From: Callorhinchus milii
Lineage: Eukaryota
Direction of reading: 5' to 3'
NCBI RefSeq assembly: GCF_018977255.1
Contig: NW_024704742.1
Location: 72,108,001 to 72,172,000 of the forward strand
Length of the DNA stretch: 64,000 bases
Under the pieces are notes generated by a model. It was not told the origin of the DNA. It ran no database searches and was given only the letters and a program-made list of their open reading frames with translations. Shown here piece after piece: positions 2,736-4,594 of the stretch. The position numbers and the translations under genes were made by a program. Numbering within the stretch: the first letter of the stretch is position 1; each line of letters opens with the position of its first letter.

Positions 2736-3128
2736 GAAGAAATGTAGCTTCGATGGATTGATAGCCCGGAGCTGTTTTGGAAATCAGATCAATACGGGAT
2801 GTGGTAATACTGCTGTCCTCCACCAGGTGGCCTTTTGGGCTAACATTGGACACCATTTTCAGGCTAATGACACCTGCCGGCTGGTCGGCAGTTTTGCGCC
2901 TCGTTCTCTCATGACTCTCAACATCACCGAGGGAATAAACAATTCAGTCTGGCTGGATACCATCCCCTTCATTCCCACTTCACTGTCTGCTACTCTTTAC
3001 TCCCTCGGCCTCCTGATCTGTAGAGTGTAGGAGGAAGGGAAGAGCGAGAGAGATGAGGAGTCCTGTACAGTGGGGGTTGGGATGGAGCGGAGGTGGGTTG
3101 GAGGGAGCCCGAGAGGGCAGACACTCAC

Positions 3129-3231
3129 CTCCGTGCTGGACGGTGGACGGGAGGACATTCTCCCCGGCGGACAGTGACACGAAGAAGGCGAAGGGGATAA
3201 TCCACAGGCACAGAGTGAAGTACGCCAGCAC
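3129..3231 (-). CDS. TEX261: TEX261 exon 5
   Basis: [42 protein letters not shown] boundaries; 103 bp. Confidence 0.95.
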
Positions 3232-3289
3232 CTGAGACACACACAGTCAGTCAGTAACCACCGGGACAGGAACTCACTCACACATGCAC

Positions 3290-3950
3290 TATCACATTCA
3301 CCTACACACCATCACACACACACCATCACACTCACACACACACCATCACACTCACACACACACCATCACTCACACACACACCATCACACTCACACACACA
3401 CCATCACACTCACACACACCATCACACTCACAGACACACCATCACACTCACAGACACACCATCACACTCACAGACACACCATCACACTCACACACACACC
3501 ATCACACTCACACACACCATCACACTCACACACACCATCACACTCATAGACACACCATCACACTCACACACACCACCACTCACACACACACCATCACTCA
3601 CACACACCATCACACTCACACACACCATCACACTCACACACACACCATCACACTCACACACACACCATCACTCACACACACCATCACACTCACACACACC
3701 ATCACACTCACACACACACCATCACACTCACACACACACCATCACACTCACACACACACCATCACACTCACACACACACCATCACACTCACACACACACC
3801 ATCACACTCACACACACCATCACACTCATAGACACACCATCACACTCACACACACCATCACACTCACAGACACACCATCACACTCACAGACACATACCAT
3901 CGCACTCACAGACACATACCATCACACTTACAGACACACACTCACACACA
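3290..3950 (+). repeat. (CACACCATCACACT)-type microsatellite in TEX261 intron 4
   Basis: Direct observation. Confidence 0.95.
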
Positions 3951-4039
3951 CTCCCTCATACCCACTCCCTCCCCCATCTCACTCCGGAGACACAGCCTCC
4001 CCACGCTCAGTCTGGTGAAGCTAATGCTCACACATTCAC

Positions 4040-4107
4040 CTCGGAGAAAGCGTAGTATTCCTCGGCAAACTGCTGGAACGCCAGGTAATGGTTATAAATA
4101 ACCAGGA
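4040..4107 (-). CDS. TEX261: TEX261 exon 4
   Basis: (V)LVIYNHYLAFQQFAEEYYAFSE; cgcag/gtgaat boundaries; 68 bp. Confidence 0.93.
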
Positions 4108-4594
4108 CTGCGAAGAGGAGAGGAGCAGATCAGTGCCCGTCACACATCAACTAAACAGCCAGCATACACTCCACCTCCAGGGCCGCTCACCAATGCCACA
4201 CAGCCGTCCAATGTCCAGCACCGAGGAGAGTGTCTGCCCACTTGGGCTCCCTCCAACCCCCCCCCACCTCTGACGTCGCCCACATGGCTGTCACACACAC
4301 CACCAACACGCTGCCTCCTGTGTTGCCCCCAGGCCACCCACACGACACTTCCTGTGTTGTCCACATGCCACCCGCACGCTACCTCCCGTGTTGCCCACAT
4401 GCCATCCACACACTACCTCCGTGTTGCCCACAATGCCACCTAAACGCTACCTCCTGTGTTGTCCACAGGCCACCCACATACTACCTCCCGTGTTGCCCAC
4501 GCACAAGCAATATGGCCGTCACAAACGCCACCAACGCGCCACCTCCCGCACCGCCTACACAGCCCATCCCACACTAGCCCGTCCGGGACCTTAC

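Follow-up and report, generated by a model that had tools for sequence, protein, structure and literature searches.

An inverted copy of the exon 5 donor junction in intron 3 of elephant shark TEX261, probably a tolerated micro-duplication

Intron 3 of TEX261 in the elephant shark (Callorhinchus milii) carries an inverted copy of the end of the gene's own exon 5, including its splice donor. Such a copy is antisense to the donor within a single transcript, and the question is whether it acts on splicing, as the original prediction of a built-in splice switch had it, or whether it is the remnant of a small mutation that the gene tolerates. The locus was analysed in its window, the whole stretch of 64,000 nucleotides from which it was taken; positions are counted from the first base of that stretch.

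The TEX261 gene model and the inverted pair

The host gene, the vertebrate homologue of Erv26, lies on the minus strand. Its six exons (Table 1), separated by introns that are all GT-AG, join to 591 nt encoding 196 aa with no internal stop, and the spliced model is identical to the RefSeq protein P0121, 'protein TEX261 [Callorhinchus milii]'. The Erv26 family (Pfam PF04148) is recognized in exon 3 with 40.3 bits and in exon 5 with 50.9 bits (curated cut-off 22.2), and exon 6 queried alone has no Pfam match. The UniRef model A0A4W3JIJ4 (P0001, 189 aa) takes its N-terminal residues from intron 1 (5373-5534, minus strand) rather than from the exon 1 side (7310-7467); the exon at 7310-7379 is the one found in the spliced contigs and in the RefSeq protein alike, so the first exon of P0001 is wrong. 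Just upstream of exon 1 there is a tandem array (7517-7825, 58-nt unit, 5.3 copies). Downstream of the gene, on the opposite strand, an open frame of 290 aa (584-1456, plus strand) has no Pfam match and could be one exon of an adjacent gene.

A repeat search of the window places the two arms at 3089-3150 and 4204-4265, 62 nt each with 54 of 62 positions identical (87%) and a spacer of 1053 nt. The core had been described as a match between 4204-4259 and the reverse complement of 3095-3150 at 50 of 56 bases, and blastn returns it at the same coordinates (56 nt, 89.3% identity). The gene model bears out the claim that the copied segment consists of the last 22 nt of exon 5, the GTGAGT donor and the start of intron 5: the downstream arm contains 22 nt of exon 5 and 40 nt of intron 5, donor included, and the upstream arm lies wholly in intron 3, where 329 nt separate it from the exon 3 donor before it and 96 nt from the exon 4 acceptor after it. 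The difference noted at the donor itself is also there (GGAGAG in the copy, GGTGAG in the original). If a run of three Cs is allowed to have expanded to nine in the copy, the match can be extended by 7 bases, to 4272 in the copy and 3088 in the original.

Table 1. Inverted arms, TEX261 gene model, neighbouring tandem repeats and the two other genome-unique inverted pairs. Positions are those of the window, except for L015 and L018, which are sampled stretches of C1, the contig of the window.
Feature	Position	Strand	Description
Original arm	3089..3150	-	Last 22 nt of exon 5 (3129-3150), GTGAGT donor (3123-3128) and 34 further intron 5 bases
Inverted copy, antisense in the transcript	4204..4265	+	In intron 3; 54/62 as in the original; gapped extension to 4272 possible
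TEX261 exon 1, coding part	7310..7379	-	ATG at 7379-7377; spliced contigs extend to 7467
TEX261 exon 2	5091..5170	-	80 nt; equals the 80-nt gap in the coordinates of the spliced-contig record
TEX261 exon 3	4595..4748	-	154 nt; Pfam Erv26, E 4.2e-10; covered by spliced contigs
TEX261 intron 3	4108-4594	-	487 nt, phase 1
TEX261 exon 4	4040..4107	-	68 nt; inside the inter-arm loop; covered by spliced contigs
TEX261 exon 5	3129..3231	-	103 nt; Pfam Erv26, E 2.4e-13; donor GAG|GTGAGT within the predicted duplex
TEX261 intron 5	2372-3128	-	757 nt, phase 1
TEX261 exon 6, coding part and stop codon	2256..2371	-	Gene model
Minisatellite, intron 4	3275..3951		20-nt unit, about 33 copies, 89% matches; 677 of the 1053 inter-arm nt
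34-nt tandem repeat, intron 3	4300..4500		5.9 copies, 35 nt from the inverted copy
Unique pair L015	3265-3311 / 3427-3473		C1 at 9.40 Mb; 47 nt, 91%, 115 nt apart
Unique pair L018	5506-5617 / 6012-6122		C1 at 11.51 Mb; 112 nt, 93%, 394 nt apart

The region around the arms is itself repetitive. The minisatellite of intron 4 gives the pre-mRNA a GU-rich stretch to which UG-repeat proteins could bind, and its length probably varies. SINE-type repeats stand in opposite orientations in introns 5, 2 and 1 (e.g. 2656-2714 against 5437-5495, 59 nt at 73%; 5400-6650), and these may offer weaker competing pairings across exons 2-5.

A unique pair and how often such pairs occur

To set the pair against its background, local inverted pairs (arms of 45 nt or more with an identity of 85% or higher, no more than 5 kb apart) were collected with blastn from 20 unselected 10-kb stretches (200 kb, a non-random sample from the first 14.3 Mb of the same chromosome) and from the window, 264 kb together. 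The pair might have been a fragment of a dispersed-repeat family or a chance similarity: SINE-type repeats abound in the window and give rise to numerous inverted pairs (24 pairs of 45 nt or more within 5 kb, most of them copies of dispersed repeats), and 20 of the 25 local inverted pairs in the 264-kb sample have other copies there. The segment at TEX261, which the original prediction took for unique sequence and not for a member of a repeat family of the window, does not behave in this way. An 81-nt query laid across the copy matches, among the best-scoring candidates in the genome of 991,535,955 bases, only itself and its partner, and the 264-kb sample holds no third copy. A pattern of 29 specified bases common to the arms occurs in the window only at those two places, with 0.00 matches expected from 100 shuffles. 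Local self-alignment, proposed earlier as a check, recovers the pair: over 481 x 481 nt around the arms the inverted alignment scores 42, a value that shuffled sequence never approaches (mean 9.2, maximum 13.5 in 200 first-order Markov resamples), and finds no similarity beyond the arms. One arm, moreover, is a coding exon plus its own donor, and on inspection the flanks of the copy have no poly-A, target-site duplication or terminal repeats. Shuffles, genome search and the 264-kb sample together rule out repeat-family membership and chance, for which we would allow a practically negligible probability.

Inverted duplications can also arise as artefacts of long-read assembly, and a fold-back or chimeric read could in principle have produced a false inverted copy. 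Artefacts of this kind give perfect palindromes, whereas here 8 of 62 positions are mismatched and the C run differs in length between the arms. We regard an artefact as highly improbable. Of the words sampled across 2000-7500 as a whole, 69-82% are found in four sequencing runs that bear the same organism label.

Five of the 25 local inverted pairs have no other copy in the 264-kb sample. Two of these were rejected as unique on searching the genome: L011, with 23 genome matches, belongs to a low-copy repeat family, and an arm of the window pair 49316-49474 / 50606-50763 has 17 genome matches. The latter pair (159 nt, 94% identity, 1131 nt apart) probably represents the terminal repeats of a low-copy DNA transposon of about 1.45 kb. 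Three pairs are genome-unique, namely that of TEX261 and two in the unselected DNA (L015 and L018, Table 1).

Two unique pairs in 200 kb correspond to some 10 per Mb (Poisson range roughly 1-36 per Mb). Extrapolated from this small and non-random sample, and as an order of magnitude, this genome would contain some ten thousand of them. Splice junctions number a few hundred thousand per genome, so that by chance a few per cent of arms would cover a junction, and to the same order of accuracy a junction-covering pair like that of TEX261 is to be expected somewhere in the genome without any function. The base rate suggests that small inverted duplications are a common class of mutation in this genome.

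The predicted duplex and the splicing of TEX261

A duplex between the arms would enclose exons 4 and 5. The arithmetic put forward for their joint loss is correct: 68 + 103 = 171 nt are bounded by the phase-1 introns 3 and 5, and joining exon 3 to exon 6 stays in frame and gives 139 aa with no stop. The 57 residues removed (102-158) do belong to the membrane region, as had been stated; on a Kyte-Doolittle profile they include the whole of the fourth hydrophobic segment (121-147) and the last residues of the third (87-105). The copy might accordingly be a cis-acting antisense element that zips onto the end of exon 5 and its donor in pre-mRNA retaining intron 3 and hinders U1, whether as a side effect or as a selected switch. 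Possible products would be a transcript skipping exons 4 and 5 (139 aa, without the fourth membrane segment), one retaining intron 5, or a 171-nt circular RNA of exons 4-5. On the evidence below we consider such an element unlikely.

Structure prediction speaks in its favour. The arm-arm duplex is computed at -117.5 kcal/mol, compared with -47.0 +/- 5.2 kcal/mol (minimum -70.1) for 300 shuffled upstream arms. Folding of the pre-mRNA, also suggested with the original prediction, places the duplex in both the MFE and the centroid structure of a 1261-nt stretch (4310-3050; MFE -336.1 kcal/mol). Barring the upstream arm from pairing costs 60.8 kcal/mol, a net worth of -60.8 kcal/mol for the duplex, and 54 of the 62 positions in register have a pair probability above 0.9. 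At the donor, eight of the nine positions from -3 to +6 are paired in the MFE structure, with +2 (3127) opposite a U-U mismatch. The exon part of the target is transcribed first, and pairing could therefore nucleate before the GU appears.

On thermodynamic grounds the model thus predicts that the duplex forms; kinetically this is less clear. The upstream arm is made first, and in the transcript that still lacks the downstream arm 47 of its 62 nt are predicted to be locally paired, worth -36.9 kcal/mol. The loop measures 1053 nt, and rapid binding of U1 is to be expected at a donor with the consensus GAG|GTGAGT. Hairpins with long loops reportedly seldom mask splice sites in vivo, according to work attributed to Solnick and Lee in 1987 and Eperon et al. 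in 1988. Each of these points weighs against an antisense effect.

The differences between the arms likewise give no hint that pairing is maintained. Only one of the eight mismatches preserves pairing (U-G), the others being C-U, C-A (twice), G-G, U-U (twice) and A-G. Both C-A mismatches are CG in the original and TG in the copy (3142/4212 and 3111/4243). The change from CG to TG is the usual decay of methylated CpG and is expected in unconstrained methylated vertebrate DNA. Divergence is the same in the exon part (3/22) and in the intron part (5/40). Small as these numbers are, nothing in the sequence suggests selection for pairing, and the pattern looks like neutral decay.

Splicing was followed in contigs of three sequencing runs, two from one study (X5, X6) and one from a second (X7), which are called RNA-type here for their spliced contigs, none of the 24 runs listed being recorded as RNA. 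Contigs were placed at 80% likeness on 3940-7500, the stretch with exons 1 to 4. One contig in each run (873, 563 and 958 nt; n = 3/3) carries exon 3 with 0 differences, and in X6 and X7 the same contig record also holds exon 1, with exactly 80 nt, the length of exon 2, between the pieces. In every one of the three runs, the bin containing 49 nt of exon 4 has the depth expected from the contig depth x 49/119 (45.4, 152.9 and 28.8). The normal exon 1-2-3-4 form is present in all three RNA-type runs and counts against an antisense effect, although contigs cannot exclude a rare skipped form. The joints listed at 80% likeness, in tables flooded by SINE copies, include none of TEX261's own.

One observation from the contigs points the other way. 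The X6 contig extends exactly 171 nt beyond exon 3, the combined length of exons 4 and 5, and by this arithmetic its end would coincide with the exon 5 donor, which is what a branch in the assembly graph (e.g. from intron 5 retention) could produce. Over 4178-4296 the depth is 5.75 in X5, 2.33 in X6 and 0 in X7; this small depth may represent intron 3 RNA or cross-mapped contigs of the exon 5/intron 5 junction. Bins 4297-4534 have no cover in the three runs, which carries no weight either way.

Protein records add little to the case for a skipped form. RefSeq has one TEX261 protein for the elephant shark, under a name without isoform label, a weak indication of a single coding form and a further point against the antisense element. 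Among the 120 listed of 190 relatives, there is no elephant shark TEX261 protein lacking residues 102-158, and the only model lacking exactly these is from a pigeon (P0074, Columba guinea; 139 aa, without exactly the 57 residues of exons 4 and 5). This is more likely a gap in the gene model or assembly than an isoform, and it shows that the phase-1/phase-1 exon structure is common across vertebrates. In a related organism (X19), a contig on 4590-4848 differs at 26 of 259 letters (exon 3 and flank), and the rest of the contig cannot be matched to intron 3 at 80% likeness; X19 also has an unassigned depth of 40.6 over 4178-4296. A limited literature search found no report of an inverted repeat in TEX261; one study of human lung-cancer cells (PMC7349683) is listed for both TEX261 and exon skipping.

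Of the predicted splice switch, the structural half holds: the arms lie in one pre-mRNA, the duplex predicted over the donor is strong, and the double skip is in frame, since both flanking introns are of phase 1. The proposed function has found no support so far: the normal exon 1-2-3-4 form is present in 3/3 runs, the mismatches look like neutral decay, and unique inverted pairs are common in this genome.

Origin of the copy and comparison with known systems

We regard the pair as probably a tolerated relic, left by an inverted micro-duplication that was neutral and arose by template switching or templated repair. This reading is supported by the duplication of unique DNA, the lack of transposon hallmarks, the decay pattern, the base rate and the normal splicing of the gene. 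During replication or break repair, some 62-69 bases over the exon 5/intron 5 junction would have been copied from the opposite strand into intron 3, by template switching at a stalled fork or by templated repair of a break; the event, its switch points and its age are reconstructed from the present sequence. Without the 677-nt minisatellite the arms are 376 nt apart, similar to the other unique pairs, and source and target may have been separated by perhaps only about 0.4 kb before the minisatellite of intron 4 grew. The two minisatellites flanking the arms plausibly fit an origin in replication trouble. Microhomology at the switch points is not recognizable in the flanks after 13% divergence. 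The copy would since have drifted to 87% identity. Being antisense within the same pre-mRNA, it could pair with the exon 5 donor; with the gene still normally spliced, it would most likely be tolerated and not used.

What tells against a relic is that the predicted duplex is unusually strong, lies over a used donor and would enclose two exons that can be skipped jointly in frame. We consider a splice switch specific to this lineage very unlikely. In that reading a single template-switch event would have placed in intron 3 a sequence antisense to the exon 5 donor, and the speed of intron 3 removal, or helicase or ADAR activity, would decide whether the donor is masked and a 139-aa TEX261 or a 171-nt circular RNA results. 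If the duplex does act, one mutation would have made a regulatory long-range RNA structure out of a splice junction of the gene itself. It would be a clean natural case, in a vertebrate that evolves slowly and with a simple in-frame read-out. As matters stand the pair is mainly a data point on apparently frequent unique local inverted micro-duplications (2 in the 200 kb sampled), some of which land on splice junctions by chance and are tolerated despite a very strong predicted duplex. It is also a caution that function is not to be read from pairing energy alone.

Several known systems invite comparison. The arms are complementary within one pre-mRNA, lie near splice sites and would be able to loop out exons and obstruct a site, as in the conserved long-range complementary regions of human pre-mRNA (PCCRs). 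According to Kalmykova et al. (2021; PMC8052449), exons looped out by PCCRs show lower inclusion and PCCRs are found around circular RNAs, two features that would favour an antisense effect at TEX261; editing sites are also enriched in them. PCCRs are defined by conservation, however, whereas the TEX261 pair is known from the sequence of one genome. The same study finds fewer of them over active splice sites and around the exons they would loop out, whereas at TEX261 the pair lies on a consensus donor in use, with two constitutive-looking exons in its loop. Because of this depletion, we take a pair in such a position to be more likely tolerated noise than design.

The arms also resemble inverted Alu pairs in standing on either side of exons 4 and 5, with 40 nt of the downstream arm intronic. 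A review (PMC11263572) describes inverted repeats in flanking introns, such as inverted Alu pairs, as driving exon circularization or skipping, again in favour of an antisense effect. Alu pairs are made of a transposon, whereas the TEX261 arms are unique sequence derived from the gene. Back-splicing, moreover, needs a free donor, whereas the downstream arm at TEX261 includes the donor itself. The link between inverted repeats in flanking introns and exon circularization is said to have been drawn by Liang and Wilusz and by Zhang et al. in 2014.

In MAPT exon 10 and in TSL2 of SMN2 exon 7, the 5' splice site is sequestered in a local hairpin with a loop of a few bases. Base-pairing of the donor nucleotides is common to these hairpins and to the structure predicted for TEX261, whose loop, in contrast, measures 1053 nt and has two exons inside.

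Template-switch mutations, reportedly described by Loytynoja and Goldman in 2017, complete the comparison. The arms of the published cases mostly lie a few to tens of bases apart, whereas the TEX261 arms, of 62 nt, are separated by 1053 nt (376 without the minisatellite). Monttinen and Loytynoja (2022; PMC8794818) note that the distance between source and target could exceed that of the local cases in their study, and that template switching creates a stem in one event. The TEX261 copy shares with such micro-duplications that it is the reverse complement of nearby unique sequence in cis and bears no transposon hallmarks.
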